Below, one piece after another: positions 1,970 to 17,942 of a stretch of 64,000 nt of DNA. Origin of the DNA: Myxococcales bacterium (lineage in GTDB: Bacteria; Myxococcota_A; Polyangia; Haliangiales; Haliangiaceae); assembly GCA_016708565.1 (NCBI GenBank), contig JADJFN010000037.1, forward strand, positions 1 to 64,000, in the 5' to 3' direction. Below the pieces are notes generated by a model that was given only the letters and a program-made list of their open reading frames with translations, did no database searches and had not been told where the DNA came from. Made by a program: the position numbers and the translations under genes. Numbering within the stretch: position 1 is the stretch's first letter; every line of letters starts with the position of its first letter.

Positions 1970-2668
1970 TCAGCGCGTGCAGCTGGGCAGCGGCGCGCTG
2001 GCCACGACCAGATCGTCGACCAGCACGGTGGTGCCGTTGGCGGCCTCGGTGGCGACGTACGACAGGCCGATCTCGACGTCGCCGAACGCGCCGTCCGGGC
2101 GGGTGTCGATCGCGGTGCGATCGGTGACCAGCGCGCCGTCGGCGCGGACGATGACCCGGCCGCCGGTGTCCGAGGCGACCAGCTCGAGCTCGACGCACAC
2201 CCAGCGGTCGCGCGGCATCGGCGTCGGGTAGTCGAAGACGTTGGCGGTCGAGACGCCGACGCCCAGGTTGCCGGCGGCGATCTCGACGTTGGTGCCGGCG
2301 AACGGCGCGACCGCCTCGCCCAGGTGCAAGATCGACATGCCGGTGGCGTCGGCGCCGGTCGGCAGGTTGAGGTGGAACTTCGCGTAGTAGCGATCGCTCG
2401 CGCCCAGGCTGCGGGCGCGCACCGCCTTGCCGCCGCCGACCGCGACCGTGGCGTGCAGCGACTTCATGCCGCCGCTGGCGTCGCTATCGTCGAGCACCAC
2501 CACGCCGCCGTCGACCAACGTGGTCCACGCCGGATCCTCGGCCTCGAAGGTGTTGCACGCGAGCAGCCCCTCGACCGCCCCGCAGTCGAGGACGTCCTCG
2601 GGCTCGGTGATGCTGCCGCACGCGGCGACGAACAGCCCGCTCACGGCGGCGATGGCGACCTGGCGCAT
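1970..2668 (-). CDS. Secreted hypothetical protein (signal peptide, possible lipoprotein)
   Basis: N-terminal MRQVAIAAVSGLFVAACGS signal/lipobox; regular codon usage; no recognisable catalytic motif. Confidence 0.5.
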   Translation of the reverse strand: MRQVAIAAVSGLFVAACGSITEPEDVLDCGAVEGLLACNTFEAEDPAWTTLVDGGVVVLDDSDASGGMKSLHATVAVGGGKAVRARSLGASDRYYAKFHLNLPTGADATGMSILHLGEAVAPFAGTNVEIAAGNLGVGVSTANVFDYPTPMPRDRWVCVELELVASDTGGRVIVRADGALVTDRTAIDTRPDGAFGDVEIGLSYVATEAANGTTVLVDDLVVASAPLPSCTR

Positions 2669-2718: not shown

Positions 2719-4668
2719 TCACGGCGTCAGCTGCGCGGGGTCGCCGTTGGCGCCGGCGAGTCGCTCCAGATCGGCGTGAGGCGCCAGCGCGGCCAGGGCG
2801 AACAGGTCGAGGGTCGCGGCGACGTCCCCGGTACCGGCCCGGCCGAGCAGCGGCGCCAGCCGCGACATCGCCAGCGCGGTCGCGGCCGTGCCGGCGCGGA
2901 CCGCGAGCGGCGCGGCGGCGCGGAGCCCCTGCAGCAGCGTCGCGTCGAGGAAGTCGTGCCAGGCCCGCCGCACCGGTCGCAGCGGGTCGTCGCCGGGGTC
3001 GCCGGGCGCGTCGTGCGGACCATCGGCGGCGGGCGCGTCGGGCGCGGCGGCGCGGGGCGGCGCGACGTCGAGGACGACCAGCCGGGTCGTGACGACGGCC
3101 AGCGGTCGCATGCGCCAGCCAGCGGCCCGGGCCTCGAGGACACCGGCGACGAAGCGTGGCGTGGCGGCCAGGGCCGCGGCCAGCGCGTCGACCGCGCCCG
3201 GGCACACCGCCTCGAAGTCGCAGCACAACGTCAGCGGGTTGTCGGCGGCGTCGTGCACCACCGCGATCAGCTCGAGCCCGTCGGCGCTCACCGCGACCCG
3301 CGCGACGCGCGCGATCGCCACCACCGCCACGCCGTGGCCGATCAAGCGCGGGGCCACCACCGCGGGCGGCCCCGCGGCGAGCCGGCGGGCGTGGGCGCGC
3401 AGGTCGCGCACCAGGATCGGCTCGGGCAACGCGTCCCAGCCGCCGCCCGCCGGGAGCAGCGTCGACTGCATGCTGCGCGACGCGCCGAGATCGAGCGCCC
3501 CGTTGGCCTTGCGCCGCGCCGCCCGGGTCACCAGCTCGCCCTGCACCAGCTCGGTGATCGACATCCGGCTCGACGCGAACAGCCTGCCGAGCTCGGGGCC
3601 GTTGCGGCGCTCGCCGCTCCACGCCTTGGCCAGCACCAGCACGGTCGCGGTGTCGGGATCGACGAAGTACAGCGACGCCAGCCGGCGATCATCGTCGGCG
3701 ACCAAGCGACAGCCCAACGCCACCAGCCGCACCTTCTCCATCGCGACGTCGGCTGGCGCGTCGCTGCCCAGCACCCACGCCGGCCGCAGCTCGGGCACGT
3801 CAGCCGCCGCGGCGCGCGCCCGCACCAGCAGCTCGCCGACCAGCGCGGTCAGCGTCGCGGCGCGGAAGCTGGCCTTCGCGGCGGCCAAGCGGTCGACCTC
3901 GCGCTCGTAGTCCTCGCAGGCGTCGGCGATCCACGCCCACCGCTCGCGCACCGCCAGCGCGCGCAGCGCCTCGGTCCGCTCGGCGGCGCCCGGCGCGGTC
4001 ACGCCGAACTGGCAGATCTGCGCGGCCCACTGCTCGACCGCGTCGCGCGCGGTCACGCCAGCTCGAGCCGCCCCCTCGGTGGCGGCGCCGCCGCCGAACA
4101 CCGCCAAGCCACCGTCGGGGCGCTGGCGGAACCCGCGCACGGCCAGGACGACGTGTTCGCACGCGGCGCCCTTGCTGCAGTCGCACTTGGCGAAGGGCAG
4201 CGACCCCGGCACCAGGAACTGCACGGTGGCCATCGGCAAGCGAGCCACTGGCGCAGCCCCGGCCTCGACGGTGATGGTCAGCCCGGCGGCGGCCAGGCGG
4301 TCCGCGATGGCGACGCCGGCGCCGCAGGTCGCGGCCACCTCGGCGTCGTTGAACGCCCCGGGATCCCACGCGGTCGCCGCCGCCGCGGTGCTGCCGAACT
4401 GCCGCTGGTAGGCGAGCACCGCGGTCAGCCGGTGCCGACACACCGTCGCGGCGCCGCAGGTGCACGGCGCCGCGGCCAGGGTCGCTCGCGGCGGCAAGCG
4501 GGTGGTCGCGCCGTCCTTGCTGACCGCGACCACCGTGCCGTCGGCGTCGACGGTGAGGTCGGTCACCGCGCCGGCCTCGGCGTCCTTCAGCGCGCGCTTG
4601 ACCAGGCCGACGTTGGCCAGGCGGGTGAGCGCGTCGGTCGTGAGCGCCAGCAGATCGGCGCGCGTCAC
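2719..4668 (-). CDS. SWIM zinc-finger family protein (last gene of MoxR/VWA/DUF5682/WGR operon)
   Basis: CxCxnCxH SWIM-like motifs (PCTCGAATVCRHRLTAV; CDCSKGAACEHVVLAV). Its start overlaps the upstream VWA gene stop by 4 nt. Confidence 0.8.
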   Translation of the reverse strand: MTRADLLALTTDALTRLANVGLVKRALKDAEAGAVTDLTVDADGTVVAVSKDGATTRLPPRATLAAAPCTCGAATVCRHRLTAVLAYQRQFGSTAAAATAWDPGAFNDAEVAATCGAGVAIADRLAAAGLTITVEAGAAPVARLPMATVQFLVPGSLPFAKCDCSKGAACEHVVLAVRGFRQRPDGGLAVFGGGAATEGAARAGVTARDAVEQWAAQICQFGVTAPGAAERTEALRALAVRERWAWIADACEDYEREVDRLAAAKASFRAATLTALVGELLVRARAAAADVPELRPAWVLGSDAPADVAMEKVRLVALGCRLVADDDRRLASLYFVDPDTATVLVLAKAWSGERRNGPELGRLFASSRMSITELVQGELVTRAARRKANGALDLGASRSMQSTLLPAGGGWDALPEPILVRDLRAHARRLAAGPPAVVAPRLIGHGVAVVAIARVARVAVSADGLELIAVVHDAADNPLTLCCDFEAVCPGAVDALAAALAATPRFVAGVLEARAAGWRMRPLAVVTTRLVVLDVAPPRAAAPDAPAADGPHDAPGDPGDDPLRPVRRAWHDFLDATLLQGLRAAAPLAVRAGTAATALAMSRLAPLLGRAGTGDVAATLDLFALAALAPHADLERLAGANGDPAQLTP

Positions 4669-5777
4669 TTCACGACCCCCTTCAGGTACTCGACGAGCTG
4701 GAACGGCGTCATCGCGCCGACCGACGCGCCGGCACGCACCATGCGCTGGCCCAGCTCACGATCGTAGGTCGGCGTCGCGGTCGCGTCGAGCGCGGCCAGG
4801 GTCACGAACCGCACGCCCTGGGCCACCAGCCGGCGCGTGGTGCGGACCAGATCGTCGGGGCTGCCGCCCTCGTAGAGGTCGGTGATCAGCACGATCATCG
4901 TCCGCGCCGGGTTCTCGACCAGGCCCTCGGCGTAGCGCACCGCGCGGGCGATGTCGGTGCCGCCGCCGAGCTGCACCTTCATCAGCGTCTCGACCGGGTC
5001 GGCGAGGTGCGTGCTCAGGTCGACGACCTCGGTGTCGAACGCGATCAGGTGGAGCTTGATCGCCGGCAGGCCGCACAGGCACGCGGCGGTGACCGCGGCG
5101 TGGATCACCGAGCCCACCATGCTGCCCGACTGGTCGACCGCGACGATGATCTGCCACTGCTCGCCGTGGCGGCGTTGCCGGCTCCAGAACAGCGGCCGCT
5201 CGATCACCAGCTGGCGCCGCGCCGGCACCCAGTGGCCGAGGTTGGCGCGGATGGTGCCGCGCGGGTCGAAGTTGCGCATCGTGCGGTGCGACGAGCGCCG
5301 CCGCTGGCGACTGCCGGCGAAGGTCGAGCGCACCTGGGTGGCCAGCGCCTCGATCAGCCGCGCCACCACCTTGCGCACCAGCTCGCGCGCCAGCCCCAGC
5401 ACCTCGGCGCTCATCAGGTGCTTGGTCAGGAGCACCGCGCGCAGCAGCGTCTCCGACGGCTCGATGCGCGCCAGCACGTCCTTGTTGGTCACCACCTCGT
5501 GCAGCCCGAACTCCTCGACGGCGTCGCGCTCGAGGCGCTCGATGGTCTCGCGCGGGAACAGCGCGTGGATCTGGTTGATCCACTCGGGCACCGCCAGCGT
5601 CGACGGCGATAGATCGGCGCCGCGCTCGTCGCGCTCGCCGAGCGCCGCGTCGCGACCGTACAGCCAGTCGAGCGCCGCGTCGCGCGCCAGGTCGGACGCG
5701 TCGACGCCGCCCGGGCCGTCGAGCTCGGCGGCCGCGGCCTTGCCCAGCACCAGCCGCCACCGCACCAGCGGGTTCAC
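4665..5777 (-). CDS. von Willebrand factor A (VWA) domain protein, MoxR-associated
   Basis: MIDAS motif VAVDQSGSM followed by a T...D pattern (GGGTDIARAV; LITDLYEGG). 4-nt overlaps with both neighbours. Confidence 0.85.
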   Translation of the reverse strand: MNPLVRWRLVLGKAAAAELDGPGGVDASDLARDAALDWLYGRDAALGERDERGADLSPSTLAVPEWINQIHALFPRETIERLERDAVEEFGLHEVVTNKDVLARIEPSETLLRAVLLTKHLMSAEVLGLARELVRKVVARLIEALATQVRSTFAGSRQRRRSSHRTMRNFDPRGTIRANLGHWVPARRQLVIERPLFWSRQRRHGEQWQIIVAVDQSGSMVGSVIHAAVTAACLCGLPAIKLHLIAFDTEVVDLSTHLADPVETLMKVQLGGGTDIARAVRYAEGLVENPARTMIVLITDLYEGGSPDDLVRTTRRLVAQGVRFVTLAALDATATPTYDRELGQRMVRAGASVGAMTPFQLVEYLKGVVK

Positions 5778-8089
5778 GGCGCCACCCCCACGGCACCGAC
5801 CCGCGCCGCGACCGCCACCAGCGCGGCCTCGAACGCGACGCCCGCGGCGACCGCGGCCGGCTCGGCGGTGGCGGCCAGCACGGTGCCCGCGTCGCGATCA
5901 CCGACCAGCGCGCGGGCGATGCCGCGGCGCTCCTGCGGCGTGAACTGCGCGAACGCGCGGCGCAGCTGCGGCAAGGCGATCAGGAACTCGCCGTCACCGG
6001 CGTCGCGCAGCCGCGCATCGACGGCCCCGAGGATCGGCGAGGTCGCGAACTCGTGGCGAGCCAGCGCGATCACGCCGCCGAGGAAGTCTCCCAGCGCCGC
6101 CAGCGGCAGCGCCGGCACCAGCGCGTCGGCCCGCGCCGCCACCGCGACCGCGCCGTCGGCGTCGGCCCGCGACCACAGCGCGCCCAGCGCGGCGCCGCGC
6201 ACCGCCGGTGGCGCGTCGGCGGCCTCGACCCGGCGGTGCAGCGCCGCGTCGACGCGCTCGGCGACCAGCGCGTGGTCGGGCAGCTCGAACTCGAGCGCCG
6301 CCCGGATCGCGACGACGCCGTCGACCACCGCCGCGTCGAGGGCCGCGGTCGGCCCGGTCAGCCCCTCGAGCAGCCACAGCGCGCGGTCGAGCACCTGCCC
6401 GAGCAGCCCGGCCAGGCCGCGCGCCGGGTCGGCGACGTGCAGCGCCGCCAGCCGCGCCAGCGCCGCGCCCGCGGCGGCGAACAGCGGCTCGCGCGCGATG
6501 GCGTCGGCCGCGCGCTCGCGGAGCTGGTCGACCACCGCGCCGTAGCCGGCGTGCAGCGCGTCCTCCATCGCCGCCGCGAGCTCGGCGACGCCGGTCAGCT
6601 CCTGCAGGTGGCGGTACACCCGCGCCAGCGCCGCCGCGGCCAGCGTCGCGCCCCACACCGCGCACTCGATGATCGCGCCGGCGGTGCGGTCGTCCTCGAC
6701 CAGCTGCCACACCTCGACCGGCTGGGTGCGGCCGCGCCGCAGGTCGGCGCGCTGCACGCGCTGCACGCCAGGGACACCCAGCCAGCGCAGCCGGTACAGC
6801 ACGCGGCGCCGCGCCGCCGCGTCGGGCGCGAAGATGTCGATGCGGATCGGCGTCGGGGTCTGGGTGAACGCCAGCCCGACCGCGGCCAGCTCGGCGGCCA
6901 GGTCGGCGACCAGCGGCGGCTGCGGCGTGCCCGGCGCCAGCGCGCCCGCGCGATCGCCCGAGAACGCCGCGACGATCTCGACCAGGTACGGATCGGTGCC
7001 GCGGGCCAGCACCGTGCGCGCCGACCACGGCACCGGCGTCCGCAGCGCGTCCTTGATCAGCGCCGCGGCCAGCCCGTCGAGCACGTCGCAGCGGGTCGGC
7101 GCCGCGTGGCCGCGCAGCCGGGCCAGTCCGTGGCTCAGCTCGACGGCGGCGATCGCGTCGGCGGTCGACACCCGCTGGCCGCGGCCGCGCAGCCGCGTCA
7201 CCGCCGCCATCGCCATGGTCTCCGGCGCGCCGGCCGGGTCGTCCCACAGCGCCTGGTAGAACGCCGGCGACGGCATGCCCGAGGCGTAGCCGGTGAAGCT
7301 GTCGAGGCGGAAGAACGAGAACGGCACCAGGTAGCTGCCGGTGCGCGCCAGCGCGGGCGGCGGCGGCTCGACGCGCGGCGGCGCCGGCGGAGGGGGGCGA
7401 CCCGCGACCAGCCGCTCGAGCGCCGCTTGATGGAAGCCGCCGCACACCACGACCACGGCGCCGCCGCCGCCAGCGTCGGCCTCGGCCAGCGCCCAGGCGA
7501 TGCCGTCAGCCATGAAGTCCTCGCGCGCGCGATCGGCCTCGCTGGCCACCTGCTCACCGCGCAGCGCGGCGAAGTACGCGCCCAGCCGCGCGCCCAGCGT
7601 CGCGTCGTCGCCGGGCTGCTCGAACAGGTGATCCCACAGCGCGTCGGTCGAGTCGAAGCCGTGGCGGTGCGCGGCGTCGCGCAAGGCCGCGCCGACCTGG
7701 TGGTCGCGGTCGCCGTAGCGGTTGGCCATCGTCGCGAACGCCGGGTGCCAGCCGGGCAGATCGATGAACGCGACCCGCGCGCCGATCGCCGCGCCGTCGT
7801 GGAGCGCCACCCACTCCGGCGAGTACGCGCAGAACGGCGACCACCCGGCCTGGGCGACCACGCCGCTGCCGGCCACGGCGTCGGGATCGCCGTCGTGGGC
7901 CGGCAGGCAGTAGCTGTAGATCGCCACCGGCAGCTGGTGCGGCAGCGCCAGCTCGGCGAGCCGCGGCGTCATGTCGCTCGGCCCCTCGATCAGGACCGCC
8001 GCCGGCCGCTCCTCGGCGATCACCGCGCGCACCAGCCGGGCACAGGCCGGGCTGTGGTGACGCACACCGACGACGCGCAGCCGGGCCAT
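5774..8089 (-). CDS. DUF5682 family protein
   Basis: Start MARLRVVGVRHHSPACARLV, typical of the DUF5682 N-terminus, at M244 of the long track ORF. The upstream 243 codons overlap the MoxR gene and are a read-through artefact. The ATG lies 2 nt after the MoxR stop. Confidence 0.8.
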   Translation of the reverse strand: MARLRVVGVRHHSPACARLVRAVIAEERPAAVLIEGPSDMTPRLAELALPHQLPVAIYSYCLPAHDGDPDAVAGSGVVAQAGWSPFCAYSPEWVALHDGAAIGARVAFIDLPGWHPAFATMANRYGDRDHQVGAALRDAAHRHGFDSTDALWDHLFEQPGDDATLGARLGAYFAALRGEQVASEADRAREDFMADGIAWALAEADAGGGGAVVVVCGGFHQAALERLVAGRPPPPAPPRVEPPPPALARTGSYLVPFSFFRLDSFTGYASGMPSPAFYQALWDDPAGAPETMAMAAVTRLRGRGQRVSTADAIAAVELSHGLARLRGHAAPTRCDVLDGLAAALIKDALRTPVPWSARTVLARGTDPYLVEIVAAFSGDRAGALAPGTPQPPLVADLAAELAAVGLAFTQTPTPIRIDIFAPDAAARRRVLYRLRWLGVPGVQRVQRADLRRGRTQPVEVWQLVEDDRTAGAIIECAVWGATLAAAALARVYRHLQELTGVAELAAAMEDALHAGYGAVVDQLRERAADAIAREPLFAAAGAALARLAALHVADPARGLAGLLGQVLDRALWLLEGLTGPTAALDAAVVDGVVAIRAALEFELPDHALVAERVDAALHRRVEAADAPPAVRGAALGALWSRADADGAVAVAARADALVPALPLAALGDFLGGVIALARHEFATSPILGAVDARLRDAGDGEFLIALPQLRRAFAQFTPQERRGIARALVGDRDAGTVLAATAEPAAVAAGVAFEAALVAVAARVGAVGVAP

Positions 8090-8091
8090 GA

Positions 8092-9231
8092 TCAGGCGGG
8101 CAGCGCGTGGCGCGCCGCGTAGAAGTCCTGCCAGTGCTGGCCCTTGCGCTTGGCCACCCGCTGCTCGAAGTAGCGCCGCAAGAGCGCCACGTCGTTCTTG
8201 TCGGTCTTGATCGCGGCGCCGACCAGGCACTCGACCAGATCGGCCGGCGTCGCCGGCGCGCCCTGCAGGTAGTGGCTGCGCAGGCTCACCGCCTGGGCCA
8301 CCGACACCGCCTCGGCGGTCGACATCGCCGTCGACAGCCGCTCGATCGCCTGGCCGTCCTCGGTGCGGCCGTCGCGCAGCTCGCGGAAGGTGGTGACCAG
8401 CAGCTCGAGGATCTGTTCGCCGGGCATCGTCGGCACGCCGCTCCGCTCTAGGTGGCGCTGGGTCTCGCTCCGCACCAGCGCCAGCTCGACCGCGTAGTCG
8501 GCGATCGGGAACACGGTCTCGAAGTTGAAGCGGCGCTTGAGCGCGGCGCTCATCTCGTTGACGCCGAGGTCGCGGGTGTTGGCGGTGGCGATGACGTTGA
8601 ACCCGACCTTGGCGAACAGCTGCTTGCCGTCCTCGAGCTCGGGGATCGCCATCACCCGATCCGACAGCGCGGCCAGGAGCAGGTCCTGGACCTCGAGCGG
8701 GCACCGCGTGATCTCCTCGAACCGCACGATCGTGCCGTCGCGCATGCCCTGGTACAGCGGCGCCGGCACCAGCGATCGCAGCGTCGGCCCCTCGGCCAGG
8801 AGCAGCGCGTAGTTCCACGAGTACTTGATCTGATCCTCGCTGGTGCCGGCGCTGCCCTGGATGGTCAGCGTCGACTGCCCGCAGATCGCCGCCGCCAGCA
8901 GCTCGGACAGGAGCGACTTCGCGGTGCCCGGCTCGCCGATCAGCATGAGGCCGCGGTTCGACGACAGCGCGATCATCGCGCGGTCGACCAGCGACGGGTG
9001 GCCGACGAACTTCTTGCGGATGCCGCGCGCCTCGTCGCCGAGGATGAACGTGCGCGCCGCGCGCGGCGACAGCCGCCAGCCCGGCGGGCGCGGGAAGGTG
9101 TCGCTGGCGCGCAGCGCCTCCAGCTCGGCGGCGTACAGCACCTCGGCCGGCGGCCGCTGGGTCTCGGTGGCCGGCCCGGGCTCGGCGGCGGTCGACGCGG
9201 CGGCCGTCGCGGGCTTGCTCGGCTTCTTCAC
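8092..9231 (-). CDS. MoxR-type AAA+ ATPase
   Basis: Walker A GEPGTAKS, Walker B/sensor region, MoxR-like C-terminus. Chosen start is a GTG whose GTGA overlaps the TGA stop of the upstream WGR gene (GTCGTGAAG), not the track M at 9330. Confidence 0.9.
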   Translation of the reverse strand: MKKPSKPATAAASTAAEPGPATETQRPPAEVLYAAELEALRASDTFPRPPGWRLSPRAARTFILGDEARGIRKKFVGHPSLVDRAMIALSSNRGLMLIGEPGTAKSLLSELLAAAICGQSTLTIQGSAGTSEDQIKYSWNYALLLAEGPTLRSLVPAPLYQGMRDGTIVRFEEITRCPLEVQDLLLAALSDRVMAIPELEDGKQLFAKVGFNVIATANTRDLGVNEMSAALKRRFNFETVFPIADYAVELALVRSETQRHLERSGVPTMPGEQILELLVTTFRELRDGRTEDGQAIERLSTAMSTAEAVSVAQAVSLRSHYLQGAPATPADLVECLVGAAIKTDKNDVALLRRYFEQRVAKRKGQHWQDFYAARHALPA

Positions 9232-12200
9232 GACGCCGCTCCCAGGCTCTCGAGGTCCCGGATGACCTCGCTCACGACGACCGCGGGCAGCGACCCGAGC
9301 GGCACCGCGTCCGCGCGGATCTCGCCCCACTCGCGACGGCTGGCGGCGACGTCGACGGTCTCGAGCGTCTGCACCGGGTCGACGTAGTCCATGCCGCCGG
9401 CGTTGAGCCCGTCGTGCATGCTGATCGCGGCCGACAGCCCGCCCTCGAGCGGCTTGTACAGGTTGTAGATGCCGCCGGCGTCCTGGGCCGGGCCCTTGAA
9501 CCAGCCGCGGCTGAGCAGGCCGAGCAGCTTCTTGGTCTCGACCTTCTTGCCGTCGTAGCGCGTGAGCGCGTTGGCCGCGCGCTCGGCGTCGTTCAGCCGG
9601 AACACCTCACGACCGAGCTGCGCGAACGGCACCTCGAGCTCGTAGTCGCCGAACACCCGGGTCCAGGCTTGCTCGTCGGCTTCGGTCAGGTGCAGGCGGT
9701 GGGCGATGCCGACCCGGGCGTCGTCGGTCATCGCGAACGCGTCGTCGTGGCGGTCGGCGTAGCTGCGATCCTCGGCGACGCGGAAGGTCGTCGTCGGTTG
9801 GTCGCCGTCGTAGACCGCCCACACCAGCCGCTTGACCACGTGGAAGAGCAGCGGGTGCTCGACGAAGAACGCCCGGAACTCCTCGCCTGACCAGCGCCGC
9901 GCGTTGCCCATCGCCAGCTCCAGCCGCGTCAGCTGGATCGACGCCACCGCGCGGGCGTCCTTCTTCATCGCCTTCCAGGTGTCGGTGGCCTCGGCGGCCA
10001 GCGCCGCGTCGTCCTTGCTGTTGGGCTTGGGCAGGTCCTTCAGGCGGGTGCCGGCGGCGTCCATCACGAACGGGGCCAGCGTCTCGTCGAAGCCGACCCG
10101 GAACGAGCGCGGGCCGAAGTCGAGGGTCTTCGAGCCGTCGTCCTCGAGGTCGAGGTCGGGCACCAGCCGATCCGCGAGCTGCTCGGCGGTGATGCCGCGG
10201 GTCTGGGCGATCTCGTGCATCTTCTCCCGCGCGCGCTCCTGCAGGCCCTTGAACTTCAGCTTCTGGGCGATGCCGTTGAGCATCATCAGCGCGACGTCCG
10301 AGCCGATCTGCCCGAGCACGTCGAGGCCCAGCGTCGCGCGCGCGTGCTGCGACTCGCCTGGCCAGGCGCGGATCAGCGGCGTCAACCGGCGCGCGGTCTC
10401 GTCGTTGCCGAGCGCGCCCAGCCCGGTGAACGCCCACTTCTCCTTGGGCGGTGCCCCGCCTTGCAGCCACAGCTGGAACAGCTCCCAGCCGAACTGCGCC
10501 AGCGCCTTGCGATCGGCGGCGTCGCGCAGCTCGCGCAGGCCGGCGGCGTCATCGGCGCGCAGCGCCACCACCAGCGCGCCCAGGTGCGGCGACGGCACGG
10601 CCTTGCCGCTGGCCAGCATCAGCGGCGGCAAGAGCTCGACGTTCCAGAACTCGGGGAACTTGGTCTTGGCCGGCGCTGGCGCCCGCAGCGCCGCGGGCAG
10701 CGCCGCCGGATCGGCGTAGTCGACCTGGGCCGGCCCCGTCACCAGGCGCTCGAGCTGTGGGATCAGCTCGCGGGCCCAGGCGGCCTTGCCGTGGGCGCGC
10801 ACCAGCGGCAGGGCGGCGTGCGGATCAGCGAGCAGGCATTCGCGGGCGATCGGCCGCGCGTCCTCGTCGCGCGACACCTGGCGATCACCGACCGCGATGA
10901 ACACCGCGACCGCGGTCGCCTGCACCTCGGCGTGGCCGCTGATCGAGCGCATCACCTCGAGCGCGCGGCGCAGCTCGGCGACCTGCTGGCCCAGGTAGTA
11001 CTGCGCGTTGTCCAGGTGCCGGGCCACTTGCACGATGCGCGCCGTCAGCGGCGTCACCGCGTCGGCGCCGAACCGGGCCAGCAGCGACGCGTCGATGCCG
11101 GGGCTGGCGTAGCCGTGCCACCGCGCGACGTGCTCGGGCTGGCGGTCGAAGGTGCGCGCGTCGTCGGCGCTGAGCCCGCCCAGGTACGCGGCCACGTCGT
11201 CGGGCCGGCTCGCCGCCAGGATCGCGTGCGGCGACAGGACTGCGCGCTCGCGGTTGGCGCGCGCGTCGGCCAGGTCCTGGTCGATCCACGCCGGGATCAG
11301 CAGCGCCGAGGCCAGCGCCGACCGGACGATCGGCGAGCCGGTGGCGCGCAGCGCCTCGGCCCGGGCCCGAGCCTCGGCCTGCCCGGCGGCGTCGAGGCGC
11401 AGCCAGTGGCCGTGCAGGACCAGGTCGCTGCGGTGGTGCAGGTAGCTCTCCAGCGACCGGTCGGGCACCGGCAGGAGCCGCCGCGCCTCGCGCTCGTCGA
11501 CCAGCTCCCGGTCGCCCTGCGTCGCGGCGAACACCTCGAGCGCGAAGCCCAGCCCGCCCAGCGCCACCAGCAGGTCGATCACGCGCGCGTGGGCGTCGGT
11601 GGCGCGGTACTGCGGCACGCCGACCAGCTGCAGGATCGCCGCCGCGGTCTCGACGTCGGGGCGGCGCAGCGGCCCGTCGCTGCCGAGCGCCGTCACCACG
11701 CGCTGCGCGAGGTCGCGCGACGTCGCGTCGCCGCCTTGCAGGCCGGCGGCGATCGCCGCCTTGGCGTCGCGGTAGCCGGCGCGGACCGGCTGCGATGCCG
11801 CCGACACCGACGGGCATGGCCGCGGCGCGATCACCAGCTCGCGCTGCTCGTGCGCCAGGTGCCGCTTGGCCACGTCGGTCCAGGCGACGGCGACCGCGCC
11901 GGTAGTGCGCGGCGCGGCGGCCGGCGGCGCGGGTGTGGCCGGGGAGGGCGCTGGCGGCGCGGCCTTGGCGGGCGGCGCGGCCTTGGCGGGCGGTGCGGCC
12001 TTGGCGGGCGGCGTTGCCGGGGTCACCCGCGGCGTCGCGCCGACCGGCGCCGGGGTCGCGCCGCCGCCGACCAGCGCGTACCCCTTCTTCACCTTCTCGG
12101 CGATCAGCTTGTCGTACTCCTGCCGCGCCTTGTCGTCCGACGGGAACGCCTTGGTCGTCGCCTGGCCGGCGGTGCCGATCTTGCCCCACGTGGTCGTGAA

Positions 12201-12269
12201 GCTCGATCCGCTCAGCTGGATGTCCCAGAACTTGTTCGACGTCCCCTCCGAGAACTCGTAGCGCGGCAT
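9228..12269 (-). CDS. WGR domain + DUF4132 protein (first gene of operon)
   Basis: N-terminus MPRYEFSEGTSNKFWDIQL...TTWGKIGTAGQ...KLIAEKVKKGY is a WGR domain. PAKAAPPAKAAP linker. C-terminal region resembles DUF4132 (WFKGPAQDAGGIYNLYKPLEGG). Confidence 0.8.
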   Translation of the reverse strand: MPRYEFSEGTSNKFWDIQLSGSSFTTTWGKIGTAGQATTKAFPSDDKARQEYDKLIAEKVKKGYALVGGGATPAPVGATPRVTPATPPAKAAPPAKAAPPAKAAPPAPSPATPAPPAAAPRTTGAVAVAWTDVAKRHLAHEQRELVIAPRPCPSVSAASQPVRAGYRDAKAAIAAGLQGGDATSRDLAQRVVTALGSDGPLRRPDVETAAAILQLVGVPQYRATDAHARVIDLLVALGGLGFALEVFAATQGDRELVDEREARRLLPVPDRSLESYLHHRSDLVLHGHWLRLDAAGQAEARARAEALRATGSPIVRSALASALLIPAWIDQDLADARANRERAVLSPHAILAASRPDDVAAYLGGLSADDARTFDRQPEHVARWHGYASPGIDASLLARFGADAVTPLTARIVQVARHLDNAQYYLGQQVAELRRALEVMRSISGHAEVQATAVAVFIAVGDRQVSRDEDARPIARECLLADPHAALPLVRAHGKAAWARELIPQLERLVTGPAQVDYADPAALPAALRAPAPAKTKFPEFWNVELLPPLMLASGKAVPSPHLGALVVALRADDAAGLRELRDAADRKALAQFGWELFQLWLQGGAPPKEKWAFTGLGALGNDETARRLTPLIRAWPGESQHARATLGLDVLGQIGSDVALMMLNGIAQKLKFKGLQERAREKMHEIAQTRGITAEQLADRLVPDLDLEDDGSKTLDFGPRSFRVGFDETLAPFVMDAAGTRLKDLPKPNSKDDAALAAEATDTWKAMKKDARAVASIQLTRLELAMGNARRWSGEEFRAFFVEHPLLFHVVKRLVWAVYDGDQPTTTFRVAEDRSYADRHDDAFAMTDDARVGIAHRLHLTEADEQAWTRVFGDYELEVPFAQLGREVFRLNDAERAANALTRYDGKKVETKKLLGLLSRGWFKGPAQDAGGIYNLYKPLEGGLSAAISMHDGLNAGGMDYVDPVQTLETVDVAASRREWGEIRADAVPLGSLPAVVVSEVIRDLESLGAAS

Positions 12270-12335
12270 CGGTCCGACGGTACCGAACGCCCGCGCGGCC
12301 AGCAATCGCCGGGCCGCGCCGTCACGTGCCCGCGG

Positions 12336-14834
12336 TCACGGCGTCAGCTGCGCGGGGTCGCCGTTGGCGCCGGCGCTGCGGTGCTTGACCTTGTCGAGCA
12401 GGCCGGCCAGCGGCGTGCCGGCGAAGACCTTGTCGATCACGTCGACGACGGTCTTGCCGCCGACGAAGGCCTGCACGCTCATGGCCTCGGCGACCTTGGC
12501 CAGGGTCTCGCGCGACGACAGCGCCAGCAGCGCCTCGCTGAAGCCGCCCTGGGCCGCGCCGAACCGCTTGACCACCGCGTCGACCTCGGCGGCGAGCGCC
12601 TCGAGCGCCAGCACCTGGCGGGCGCGGGTGGCGGCCACCGATGCCTCCTCGGTGGCGCGCTGCCGCGCCAGGGCCGCCTGGTGGTCGACGTCGACCGCGG
12701 CGTTGTGCGCCACCGCGGTGGCCTGGCGGGCCTTGGCCTCGTCGAGCTCGCCGTGGATCTGCGCCAGCGCCATGCGCATCCGCGCGCCGACCTGCTCGAT
12801 CTCCAGCTCGGTCAGCTTGCGCTTGGTCTCGGCCTGGGCGTCGGCGGTCTCGCGCGCGATCTGCTCCTGGCGGCGGGTCACGTCGAGGCCGCGCTGCGCG
12901 CGCAAGAGCGTGATGTTCGACTGCACCGCCTCGTGCTGCGCGTGGTTGAGCAGCTCGGCGATCGCGTCGTCGTCGATCGCGACCTCGAGGATCTCGACGT
13001 CGGTGATGCGCATGCCGTTCTCGGCGAAGCGCATGCCGGTGCGGGCGCCGCCGTCGCCGGCCTTGCCCAGCATCGTGTCGCGGATGATCTCGACCGACGC
13101 GCCGTAGAACGCCTCGATCGACACCTTCTTGATCGCGCCCTTCAGCACGCTGCGGACGTGGTCGCACAGGAACTTCACGTAGTTCTCGACCTCGAACCAC
13201 CGCGCCGGCTCGCCCTCGAAGTTGACCCGCATCGAGTACTCGAGCGTGACCGTGACGTGATCGGACGTCTCGACCACGCAGATGTCGCCGACCTTGTTGT
13301 TGAGCACCCGCAGGAACACCGTCTCGATCAGCTTGTCGGTGGTCTTGGGCTTGCCGGTCGACAGCTGGATCACCTCGAGCGTCTCGTCGTAGCCGAGCAG
13401 CAGGTTGATCGGCCCTTGCTCGACGCGGCGACCGCCTTGCTTGTCGACCACCATCACCGCGTAGCCGACCCAGGTGTTGACCGACGGCACGCCCTGGAAG
13501 CGGGTGTCGAGCACGACGGTGCGCGGCTGGGTGAACTGGTTGGCGCGGTCGAGCACGTCGCCGGCCAGCGCCGCCGACGCCGCCGGTGCGCCCGCCACCT
13601 GCTGCGCCGCCGGGGCCTTCTTCTGCTGGCGCTGGATCTCGCTCTCGGACACCACGCCGGCGCGCCCGGCCGGCGCCGCGCTCTCGAGCTGGCGCAGCGA
13701 GCGGTTGTAGCCGAGCACGGCGTCGTTGCCGGGGTACCAGGTCTGGCACTCGCGGTCGGTCAGCACCCGGCGCACGATCACGTCGTCGACCGGGTTGGGC
13801 AGGAGCATCGCCGGGCCCCGCACCATGCGGATCTCGCCGGTCTTGCGGTTCATCACGTAGCGGGCCTCGCCGGCCGGCACCGCCACCGCGAAGTGCTTGT
13901 CGCGCCCGTCGTAGCGGACGATCGAGTGCTCCTCGCGCGGGAAGTAGATCGCGGTCTCCTTGCCGGTGAGGAAGAACTCGTCGCCCTCGCGGTGGCTCTT
14001 GCCGCCCTCGGCGTAGGGCGCGATCACCTTGACGTGCAGGCCCTGGATCTCGTTGAGCTCGATGGCCTTGAACTTGCGGTGGCCGTCCATCGCGATGAAG
14101 GTCTCGGTCGGTTCGGGGAACACCACCTGCGGGCCGCGCTCGTAGCGCTTCTTGCCGTTCTGCTCGACGAGGATGCAGTACTCGAGGCGCTCGAGCGTCA
14201 GCGCGTCGCGGACGTAGCTGCCGTGCTCGTCGGGCACCACGCCGACGCCGGTCGGCGGGATGTAGAACGACACGTCGGTGCCCTTGATGATGAACAGCTT
14301 GCCGACGGTGAGCTCGGCCGGCGCGCGGGTGATCGGCTGGGTCGGGTCGGCGCCCTCGGCCGACGCCGGCTTGATCACCGCCTGGCCCCAGTGCTTGCGC
14401 GCCTCGTCCTCGTTGTAGACGCGGACCAGCAGGTACTGGTTCGAGCGCAGGTGGTGGCCGGGCACCAGCTTGACCATCTGCCCCGGCCACAGCGGGAACG
14501 AGCACGGGCCGGTGATGTTGATCTTGCGGCCGACCTCGAGATCCGGCGACGGGAACACGCCGCCTGGCGGCGGGTGGTCGTTCTTCGCCGACGGGTTCTT
14601 GAGCACGACGTAGTAGCCCTCGGGGGCGATCGCGATCTGCTGCACCGCCTGCTCGAGCCCGCATGGCTCGAAGCGCTTGTTCTCGGGGTTGAACACCACC
14701 GGCCGCTCCTGCGCGGTCGGGTTGATCACCGTCGGGCCGGTGTAGGTCTTGATGACGCCCTTGGTGACGTCCTGCATGTAGGCGTACTCGCTCGGCGCGA
14801 GCACGAGATCGCGCTTCTGGTTGCGCTCGTCCAT
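12336..14834 (-). CDS. Major vault protein (MVP) homolog
   Basis: Start MDERNQKRDLVLAPSEYAYMQDVTKGVIKTYTGPTV aligns to the human MVP N-terminus ([26 protein letters not shown]). Repeated MVP-repeat units. The shoulder region aligns well (LSTGKPKTTDKLIETVFLRV...ETSDHVTVTLEYSMRVNFE vs human [20 protein letters not shown]...ETADHARLQLQLAYNWHFE). SPFH-like and coiled-coil cap-helix C-terminus. Confidence 0.85.
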   Translation of the reverse strand: MDERNQKRDLVLAPSEYAYMQDVTKGVIKTYTGPTVINPTAQERPVVFNPENKRFEPCGLEQAVQQIAIAPEGYYVVLKNPSAKNDHPPPGGVFPSPDLEVGRKINITGPCSFPLWPGQMVKLVPGHHLRSNQYLLVRVYNEDEARKHWGQAVIKPASAEGADPTQPITRAPAELTVGKLFIIKGTDVSFYIPPTGVGVVPDEHGSYVRDALTLERLEYCILVEQNGKKRYERGPQVVFPEPTETFIAMDGHRKFKAIELNEIQGLHVKVIAPYAEGGKSHREGDEFFLTGKETAIYFPREEHSIVRYDGRDKHFAVAVPAGEARYVMNRKTGEIRMVRGPAMLLPNPVDDVIVRRVLTDRECQTWYPGNDAVLGYNRSLRQLESAAPAGRAGVVSESEIQRQQKKAPAAQQVAGAPAASAALAGDVLDRANQFTQPRTVVLDTRFQGVPSVNTWVGYAVMVVDKQGGRRVEQGPINLLLGYDETLEVIQLSTGKPKTTDKLIETVFLRVLNNKVGDICVVETSDHVTVTLEYSMRVNFEGEPARWFEVENYVKFLCDHVRSVLKGAIKKVSIEAFYGASVEIIRDTMLGKAGDGGARTGMRFAENGMRITDVEILEVAIDDDAIAELLNHAQHEAVQSNITLLRAQRGLDVTRRQEQIARETADAQAETKRKLTELEIEQVGARMRMALAQIHGELDEAKARQATAVAHNAAVDVDHQAALARQRATEEASVAATRARQVLALEALAAEVDAVVKRFGAAQGGFSEALLALSSRETLAKVAEAMSVQAFVGGKTVVDVIDKVFAGTPLAGLLDKVKHRSAGANGDPAQLTP

Positions 14835-17589: not shown

Positions 17590-17630
17590 GCCCCGGTCGA
17601 GCCCGCCCAGCGGGGATGTGAGCGTGGGCG

Positions 17631-17942
17631 CTACACCAATTCGATCCACACGTCGCCGTCGATCACCCGGGCCCGGTAGCGGCGCAGCGTGAGCGACCGA
17701 TCGTGGCGGCAGGCGCCGGTGCGCAGGTCGAAGACGTAGCCGTGGCCGGGGCAGGTCAGGCAGCCGTCGGCGACCTCGCCGCCGTCGAGGCCGACGTCCT
17801 CGTGCGGGCAGACGCCCGCGGTGGCGACCACCTCGCCGGCGATCACCCCGGCCATCACTGGCCAGGTCACGCCGGCGACGGTGAACGCGCGCAGGTCGTC
17901 GATCGGCAGCTCGGCCAGCGCGCCCAGCCGCACCCGCAGCAC
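17631..17942 (-). CDS. Rieske [2Fe-2S] ferredoxin-like protein
   Basis: CPHEDVGL ... [11 protein letters not shown] Rieske boxes. GTG start overlaps the TAG stop of the upstream permease gene by 1 nt. Confidence 0.6.

Follow-up and report, generated by a model that had tools for sequence, protein, structure and literature searches.

Results

A five-gene module on the minus strand

We analyzed a 64,000-nucleotide (nt) stretch of DNA from a Myxococcales bacterium (contig JADJFN010000037.1, positions 1 to 64,000; hereafter, the window), in which a first-pass annotation had placed a module of five genes between positions 2719 and 12269. The genes, which encode WGR-DUF4132, MoxR, DUF5682, VWA, and SWIM proteins, were confirmed at these positions. 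Each is a minus-strand open reading frame (ORF) with a single stop. In reading order, they are as follows, with lengths in amino acids (aa).

12269 to 9228, minus strand: WGR-DUF4132 protein of the MolR/YehF-YehH-YehI type, 1013 aa, ATG start
9231 to 8092, minus strand: MoxR AAA+ ATPase of the YehL subfamily, 379 aa, GTG start (AAA_5, 9.6e-34)
8089 to 5774, minus strand: DUF5682 protein of the YehM type, 771 aa, ATG start (Pfam, 7e-90)
5777 to 4665, minus strand: VWA_CoxE-type protein of the YehP type, 370 aa, GTG start (Pfam, 7.4e-53)
4668 to 2719, minus strand: SWIM protein of the YehQ type, 649 aa, GTG start

The junctions were then read from the sequence. Three of the four (WGR/MoxR, DUF5682/VWA, and VWA/SWIM) are GTGA overlaps of 4 nt, whereas the MoxR/DUF5682 junction reads TGA-TC-ATG and contains a 2-nt spacer. 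The first-pass annotation had stated that every junction overlaps, although its own details gave this spacer. The same pattern was observed at related myxobacterial loci, and the junctions are also tight in the E. coli, Streptomyces, and Bacillus copies of the module. Overlaps of four bases are commonplace in high-G+C operons. Those of the module support co-translation, but not the "strict stoichiometric co-expression" that had been claimed, which over-reads ordinary overlaps. The G+C content of the window is ~75%, uniformly 71–78%, with no compositional anomaly at the module, and an Rfam scan of positions 1–64000 showed no family at the gathering score.

Profile searches upheld the WGR domain call, at residues 8–65 (12075–12248; Pfam, 2.6e-18). 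The same protein contains a DUF4132 domain at residues 740–923 (9501–10052; Pfam, 9.4e-54), and a low-complexity PAKAAP linker lies C-terminal of its WGR domain. The MoxR protein has the Walker A motif GEPGTAKS, the Walker B-like motif VRFEEI, and the sensor-1 motif ATAN, all common to YehL. The metal ion-dependent adhesion site (MIDAS) of the VWA protein, also called earlier, is complete (D215-x-S-x-S219, T274, and D300), and its VWA domain spans residues 145–363 of 370, with no C-terminal extension. The SWIM call is sub-threshold in Pfam (17.3 bits against a gathering score of 19.6 bits), although it holds by motif and fold, with zinc fingers at residues 69–79 (4432–4464) and 162–172 (4153–4185). 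An NCBIfam scan of the module proteins gave only weak, sub-threshold matches (GvpN, MadB, cobaltochelatase, and a WGR-containing Leptospira protein).

Within the WGR-DUF4132 gene, an 18-nt tandem repeat in three overlapping copies was also observed at 11950–12018 on the minus strand, encoding the PPAKAA-type repeats of the linker. Its counterpart in the related locus L077 is a 15-nt repeat at 2640–2724.

Orthology with molR-yehLMPQ of Escherichia coli

All five products matched E. coli K-12 proteins in BLASTP. The MoxR protein was 63% identical to YehL over 355 aa (E 1.7e-157), the VWA protein 55% identical to YehP, the DUF5682 protein 39% identical to YehM over 742 aa, and the SWIM protein 31% identical to YehQ, while the WGR-DUF4132 protein matched YehI (37%), YehH (53%), and YehF (41%). 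Reciprocal best hits between the module genes and yehL, yehM, yehP, yehQ, and yehI were tested and hold. The K-12 cluster adjoins metG and consists of yehF (WGR), yehH (a pseudogene), yehI (DUF4132), yehK, yehL (MoxR), yehM, yehP (VWA), and yehQ (SWIM). On these identities and the equal gene order, the module is almost certainly the myxobacterial orthologue of molR(yehF/H/I)-yehL-yehM-yehP-yehQ, a cluster built round the YehL-subfamily MoxR. The host of this orthologue is an uncultured myxobacterium of the Kofleriaceae/Haliangiales type. YehL is one of seven MoxR subfamilies in the classification of Snider and Houry, as cited in PMC3893208. The first-pass annotation missed this orthology. The cluster is already known, widespread, and uncharacterised, and the window adds nothing categorically new to it. 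The earlier statement that no experimental function is known agrees with the literature searched, in which none turned up.

The likeness of the two loci extends to details. All five families are present in both, in equal order and at 31–63% identity; the yehM/yehP and yehP/yehQ junctions are short or overlapping, as in the window; and the MIDAS, both SWIM motifs (CxCx6CxH), and the unusual FEEI Walker B-like motif are kept. In contrast, WGR and DUF4132 form one intact 1013-aa protein in the window, whereas the K-12 counterparts are split or decayed, and larger (YehI, 1210 aa). Furthermore, the window contains no yehK and no 306-bp gap ahead of the ATPase gene, and its G+C content of 75% also sets it apart from K-12. 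The window module is a direct-repeat-flanked indel, as described below, whereas that of E. coli is a near-core gene set: yehLMPQ DNA was found in 5353 of 5426 complete E. coli genomes, with one chromosomal copy in each.

The E. coli copies are unusually divergent, ranging from 90 to 100% identity, with 934 genomes at only 90–95% nucleotide identity to K-12. This spread exceeds what we expected for E. coli core genes. The +1 frameshift site of E. coli yehP is an E. coli-specific nucleotide cassette (PMC2790909).

Conservation of the gene set

Members of at least five phyla carry the gene set. Among annotated records, it occurs in the window's order on Streptomyces and Bacillus mycoides plasmids, and in full but permuted order on a Sinorhizobium plasmid. 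A Deinococcus taeanensis plasmid carries the arrangement SWIM, DUF5691, AAA, small ORF, DUF5682, and VWA (L088), in which DUF5691 replaces DUF4132. Judged from this variant, the sensor-like subunit appears to be exchangeable.

Next, 80 metagenome loci seeded on DUF5682 were analyzed. These loci were picked by two conserved peptides and are 39–95% identical to the window DUF5682 protein (all but three at or below 47%), and the sample is therefore not unbiased. MoxR was the immediate upstream gene of DUF5682 in 59 of 61 loci, VWA was the immediate downstream gene in 58 of 59, and VWA followed by SWIM was found downstream in 45 of 46. All 26 fully flanked loci contained MoxR, VWA, and SWIM; DUF4132 was present in 22 and a detectable WGR domain in 17, and 15 showed the canonical order. 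Wherever DUF5682 occurs, the MoxR-DUF5682-VWA-SWIM core is practically constant; nearly all loci also contain DUF4132, and roughly two in three contain WGR. The first-pass annotation had named a lack of co-conservation in other genomes as a finding that would refute the module. The genes are co-conserved in E. coli, in the plasmid records, and at the metagenome loci, and a module centred on MoxR and VWA, as it had proposed, is genuine.

The DUF5682 family is moderately large: among 1.84 billion clusters at 50% identity, 1356 scored E ≤ 1e-10. DUF5682-VWA fusions were found in four separate clusters at 50% identity, together with one AAA-DUF5682 and one VWA-SWIM fusion. These fusion proteins argue for a physical complex, although the single examples could be frameshift artefacts.

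Predicted folds of the DUF5682, SWIM, and WGR-DUF4132 proteins

The N-terminal ~260 aa of the DUF5682 protein (about 7304–8089) are predicted to adopt a TIKI/TraB/ChaN/erythromycin-esterase-like alpha/beta fold, and the rest of the protein is predicted to be helical. In the predicted structure, a parallel beta-sheet core flanked by helices matches solved members of this superfamily, listed here with the structure entry and the value of the match.

TraB-family protein, 8bqs_DQ, 10.1
ChaN, 2g5g, 9.6
"Succinoglycan biosynthesis" proteins, 2rad and 2qgm, 8.9 and 7.7
HopBA1, 5t09, 8.6
EreC, 6xcq, 7.5
PMT, 2ebf, 7.2
RRSP, 5w6l, 6.6

The TIKI superfamily groups PMT, HopBA1, ChaN, and RRSP with the erythromycin esterases, and those members that are active rely on a conserved His-Glu core (PMC6254334). 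Across the aligned DUF5682 proteins, H220 (in CGGxH) never varies, and conservation is 90% or higher at H11, H12, and E35. H11/H12, E35, and H220 lie just past the predicted parallel strands 3–9, 31–37, and 211–217 and form a putative catalytic set, whose His/Glu spacing resembles, in sequence positions only, the Ere and RRSP motif. DUF5682 is predicted to share the fold of the TIKI/TraB/PrgY/ChaN/erythromycin-esterase superfamily (RRSP, PMT, HopBA1, and EreB/C), with candidate catalytic His/Glu residues at parallel-strand ends. In contrast to those proteins, it is fused to a ~500-aa helical region, stands in a MoxR-VWA context, and has no detectable sequence similarity to them. Pfam searches with the isolated N-domain at E values up to 10 matched DUF5682 alone; therefore, only the fold reveals the TIKI-like relationship.

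The model of the SWIM protein (predicted local distance difference test score 90; predicted template-modelling score 0.87) consists of the two zinc fingers, a helical middle, two oligonucleotide/oligosaccharide-binding (OB) barrels, and a C-terminal helical bundle. Residues ~305–535 (3064–3756) are modelled as two beta1-beta2-beta3-alpha-beta4-beta5 barrels, that is, OB folds of the SSB/RPA type. When these barrels were compared with the PDB by Foldseek, the best matches were all tandem-OB binders of single-stranded DNA (ssDNA), namely LEF-3, Teb1, TEBP-alpha, RPA70, POT1, and CST, with E values of 0.008–0.05. The OB region is a putative single-stranded nucleic-acid binder.

Sequence searches of the PDB with the single proteins and a WGR-DUF4132 profile found solved relatives only for the WGR domain and generic AAA modules. 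With the WGR-DUF4132 profile, the matches were confined to the WGR part (2ra8, 6e-23, and the WGR domain of PARP3). WGR is the DNA-break-reading domain of PARPs. In related myxobacteria, the same WGR domain (60–77% identical over ~70 aa) was observed fused to leucine-rich repeats, tetratricopeptide repeats, AAA ATPase domains, and, once, an ATP-dependent DNA ligase.

A possible nucleic-acid-responsive MoxR-VWA mechanism

Published regulation of molR-type genes bears on the role of the module. In E. coli, molR is listed among the LexA-regulated genes with a known SOS box (PMC6590174), and a CTGG-N8-ACAG site, CTGGATAAAATTACAG, is located 10 nt ahead of yehF. In D. radiodurans, the WGR and DUF4132 genes are strongly induced by DdrO depletion (PMC8533742). 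Together with the WGR domain and the predicted OB folds of the SWIM protein, this SOS/DdrO control favours a MoxR-VWA machine that responds to DNA damage or ssDNA. Our overall best explanation joins the orthology with molR-yehLMPQ to such a nucleic-acid-responsive mechanism, and we consider it evenly balanced whether this explanation is right as a whole.

The mechanism itself (remodelling by MoxR-VWA, DUF5682 hydrolase output, and WGR/SWIM-OB input) is proposed tentatively, and the chances are somewhat against it. A MoxR hexamer and the MIDAS-bearing VWA adaptor would together use ATP to remodel a client, as other MoxR-VWA systems do, and this client would be the DUF5682 protein. The TIKI/TraB/erythromycin-esterase-like domain of the client, with its conserved His-Glu-His set, would probably provide the enzymatic output by hydrolysing peptides or esters. 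Two nucleic-acid-reading subunits, WGR-DUF4132 and the SWIM protein with its two SSB/RPA-like OB folds, would supply the input. DNA damage or ssDNA (or DNA ends) would trigger the complex, whereupon the hydrolase would be switched on or delivered.

Several points weigh against this proposal. OB folds may bind proteins or sugars instead, and every OB match in Foldseek was above E 1e-3. The TIKI family includes non-enzymes, such as ChaN and PMT. PDB sequence searches found no solved relative of DUF5682, DUF4132, or YehQ, and sequence and profile searches gave no fold match for DUF4132. WGR cannot be the sole sensor, because about a third of the loci lack it. In a comparison by eye with the Myxococcus motif, no convincing LexA-type box was found upstream of the window module. 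In addition, SOS/DdrO control is documented for molR, WGR, and DUF4132 genes but not for yehLMPQ (PMC6590174, PMC8533742), and E. coli yehL and yehM are silenced by H-NS/StpA from a separate intergenic region and derepressed in hns/stpA mutants (PMC3686432).

Alternative explanations

A DNA-damage- or ssDNA-responsive machine may serve either damage tolerance or repair, or the sensing of invading DNA, and the damage-responsive reading overlaps with one of defence. In the latter, the module would be an anti-phage or anti-plasmid system, whose WGR, SWIM, and OB folds sense invader nucleic acid and whose MoxR-VWA pair licenses a TIKI-like hydrolase effector that causes cell death or arrest or breaks down a protein of the invader. 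This role suits the architecture, in which a sensor-like part and an NTPase switch are combined with a putative hydrolase, and the TIKI-fold relatives include the toxins or effectors RRSP, PMT, and HopBA1. Close relatives differ by gain or loss of the module as a whole, and it is found at varied loci and on plasmids. The E. coli copy, besides its unusual divergence between strains (90–100%), is H-NS-silenced like horizontally acquired genes (PMC3686432).

On the other side, PADLOC showed no convincing match for any of the five proteins. MoxR, DUF5682, and VWA matched nothing in PADLOC-DB 2.0.0, and the two marginal matches, at 13–14 bits, were to unrelated long models (WGR_XIII, E 0.0038; Type I specificity subunit, E 0.0057); on these results, the module could not be classed among the known defence systems. 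Moreover, the set is near-core and single-copy in E. coli (5353/5426) rather than accessory. In about ten contexts inspected, the neighbours were metabolic or unknown genes and none was a defence gene. The phage records contained one weak partial match, and no relatives of the module were found among the 2.9 million viral contigs of IMG/VR; a phage origin was rejected on these two results. The literature searched reported no defence phenotype.

The first-pass annotation had matched the module to predicted vWA-MoxR conflict or defence-type systems. Kaur, Burroughs, Iyer, and Aravind (2020) described four MoxR-vWA ternary conflict systems, defined by a VMAP, inactive STAND (iSTAND), FtsH, or beta-propeller component (PMC7159879). 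The window module resembles these systems in its core pair of a MoxR AAA+ ATPase and a vWA protein, in having extra co-conserved partners, and in its presence in multicellular bacteria (myxobacteria and actinobacteria). However, VMAP, iSTAND, FtsH, and beta-propeller components are all absent from the five proteins in Pfam, and the window vWA protein has no C-terminal effector domain. The window MoxR is of the YehL type and reaches only 25.0 bits, over 52 residues, against the bpMoxR gathering score of 27. Its partners, DUF5682, SWIM-OB, and WGR-DUF4132, do not appear in PMC7159879, which mentions none of SWIM, WGR, YehL, and DUF4132. Without a defining third component and with a sub-threshold bpMoxR match, the module was rejected as one of the four published systems. 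The match to conflict systems is not supported, in view of the missing third component, the sub-threshold bpMoxR match, the PADLOC result, the viral searches, the near-core status in E. coli, and the neighbouring genes. Nothing tested here supports a defence role, and we regard it as unlikely.

Less probable still is a role in maturation, with the MoxR-VWA pair as a chaperone dedicated to a metalloprotein or cofactor pathway, in the manner of CoxD/CoxE, NorQ/NorD, CbbQ/CbbO, or Mg-chelatase, and with the other three proteins as scaffolds or clients. Such a role would fit the old name "molybdate metabolism regulator", and the historical molR phenotype also counts toward it. The VWA protein is of the CoxE type; in NCBIfam, MoxR is weakly similar to GvpN and VWA to a cobaltochelatase subunit; and haem is bound by ChaN, whose fold is related to that predicted for the DUF5682 N-domain. 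Characterised MoxR proteins mature specific complexes (PMC3893208). Like the classical pairs (RavA-ViaA, CoxD-CoxE, NorQ-NorD, CbbQ-CbbO, and BchI-BchD), the module combines an AAA+ ring with a MIDAS-bearing VWA adaptor encoded next to it, and the window VWA shares the CoxE type. Those pairs, however, adjoin or act on a known enzyme client, whereas the partners here are three uncharacterised proteins whose domains are of the nucleic-acid type, and the neighbourhood contains no conserved enzyme client. In the contexts examined, genes for metalloenzymes or cofactor biosynthesis were not conserved beside the module, and its WGR, SWIM, and SSB/RPA-like OB domains suggest a link with nucleic acids, not with metal centres. 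Furthermore, the molybdenum genes of D. radiodurans did not co-vary with its WGR and DUF4132 genes (PMC8533742). We consider a maturation role quite improbable.

Direct repeats bound the module in the window

A pair of 62-nt direct repeats, absent from the first-pass annotation, brackets the module exactly. The repeats, the leader, and the flanking genes are as follows.

1970 to 2668, minus strand: flanking gene outside the module, 232-aa protein, no family match
2697 to 2758: left copy of the 62-nt direct repeat, which holds the last SWIM codons and stop and runs into the upstream region of the next gene
12270 to 12313, minus strand: short leader upstream of the WGR gene, which travels with the module
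12314 to 12375: right copy of the 62-nt direct repeat, comprising the last 13 codons and stop of the MVP-like gene and 22 nt past the stop
12336 to 14834, minus strand: flanking gene outside the module, MVP-like protein, 832 aa (MVP_shoulder, 9.5e-26; Vault_3, 2.5e-8)

The copies are identical at 59 of 62 positions and share a 53-nt exact core, with zero such pairs expected by chance. The block of 9617 bp between the repeats runs from the leader through the last sense codon of the SWIM gene, and its 9555 unique bases consist of the five genes and a 44-nt leader. No integrase, transposase, or recombinase domain was found in the block in ORF, Pfam, and NCBIfam scans. The repeat is formed by the 3′ end of the MVP-like gene. 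Since the left copy supplies the end of the SWIM gene, the last 11 residues of the SWIM protein, GANGDPAQLTP, are borrowed from the MVP-like protein. This tail is predicted to be disordered in the model, and SWIM homologues at other sites end natively in RLA followed by the stop.

Presence or absence of the module differs between sister myxobacterial genomes. In one of them (L002, JAEUJY010000077.1), which is 93–95% identical and collinear with the window on both sides, there is one repeat copy and no module. The MVP-like gene runs straight to the 232-aa gene across an uninterrupted junction, and the product of the latter gene (12567–13247 in L002, directly downstream of the MVP-like gene) shares 91% aa identity with that of the window. 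In L081–L083, L093, and L097 (~92% identical), the module occupies the window's site, and the repeat copies are decayed and mosaic. L096 carries the module in the same broad neighbourhood without the MVP block, and L098 has a different downstream flank, with homology stopping at the repeat boundary. In L077, the module lies at a different locus, where no flanking direct repeats were found; therefore, the module is not bounded by repeats wherever it is inserted.

In L093, the sequence past the SWIM stop at ~11924–11950 (CCGTCGCCGCGACGGCCCCCGGGCC) is like that past the MVP stop of L081 (~2318–2347) and unlike L093's own. The mosaic distribution of repeat alleles between lineages suggests repeated recombination at the site. 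A second indel was also observed: L002 contains ~1 kb extra at 5997–7071, ~3 kb upstream of the MVP-like gene, relative to window ~17619–17636. This indel, the lack of the 232-aa gene in L093, and the lack of the MVP block in L096 together indicate that the region is recombinationally unstable. As for polarity, the module may have been inserted long ago and later deleted precisely through the repeats in the L002 lineage, while conversion kept the window repeats identical; alternatively, it may have been exchanged repeatedly by recombination at the repeat.

An assembly artefact, in which the module would not truly lie between the MVP-like and 232-aa genes, was rejected as having a negligible probability. 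The window does come from an uncultured organism, and an exact repeat of 53 nt might in theory confuse an assembler that works with short k-mers. However, the MVP-to-WGR junction recurs in four independent assemblies, which differ in sample and assembler and of which one (L089) is 99.95% identical over 10.2 kb, and the order of MVP-like gene, module, and 232-aa gene is collinear at 92% identity in L081–L083 and L097. The MVP-like protein was used to find these assemblies, the exact SWIM protein not being on record in the contig index.

Leader and neighbouring genes

The leader contains an element, GCGATTGC(T/C)G-N-GCGCGG-N-GTTCG(G/A)TACCGTCG, that is conserved in the window, L093, L081, and the differently located L077. 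It may hold a promoter, TTGCTG-17-TACCGT, ending ~7 nt ahead of the ATG; with a promoter so close to the start codon, the mRNA would be nearly leaderless. A consensus promoter and terminator scan found nothing. The MVP-like gene was found at 75 related loci, none of which has yeh-type genes within 10 kb. These loci are mostly in Myxococcota metagenome-assembled genomes (Kofleriaceae, Haliangiales, and Nannocystaceae), and also in Achromatium.

Discussion

The molR-yehLMPQ cluster, to which the window module almost certainly belongs, is among the remaining "y-genes" of E. coli K-12: it is near-core, spans at least five phyla, and has no assigned function. The fusion and co-occurrence counts set an obligatory core (MoxR-DUF5682-VWA-SWIM) apart from a variable sensor (WGR-DUF4132). 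The predicted TIKI/TraB-like hydrolase domain of YehM-type proteins gives named conserved residues as a concrete handle, and the SSB/RPA-like OB folds predicted for YehQ-type proteins make a DNA-binding test obvious. In the myxobacteria, the presence or absence of the module between 62-nt repeats illustrates, in nature, how a whole operon can be gained or lost without a recombinase.

A bolder proposal, which we put forward as speculation with a low probability, is that the yeh-type module is a self-contained nucleic-acid-triggered switch. The SSB/RPA-like OB and PARP-like WGR domains would read ssDNA or DNA ends, and MoxR-VWA would then unlock a protease or esterase of the TIKI family. Between related genomes, the module would also travel as a cassette, from promoter to last codon, by short-repeat recombination with no recombinase of its own. 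If true, this switch would represent a DNA-damage checkpoint or innate-immune effector of a new kind, which E. coli K-12 itself would possess. Together with the published SOS/DdrO regulation, the leads described here make a cluster of "unknown function" the subject of a damage-sensing hypothesis that can be tested in a model organism.

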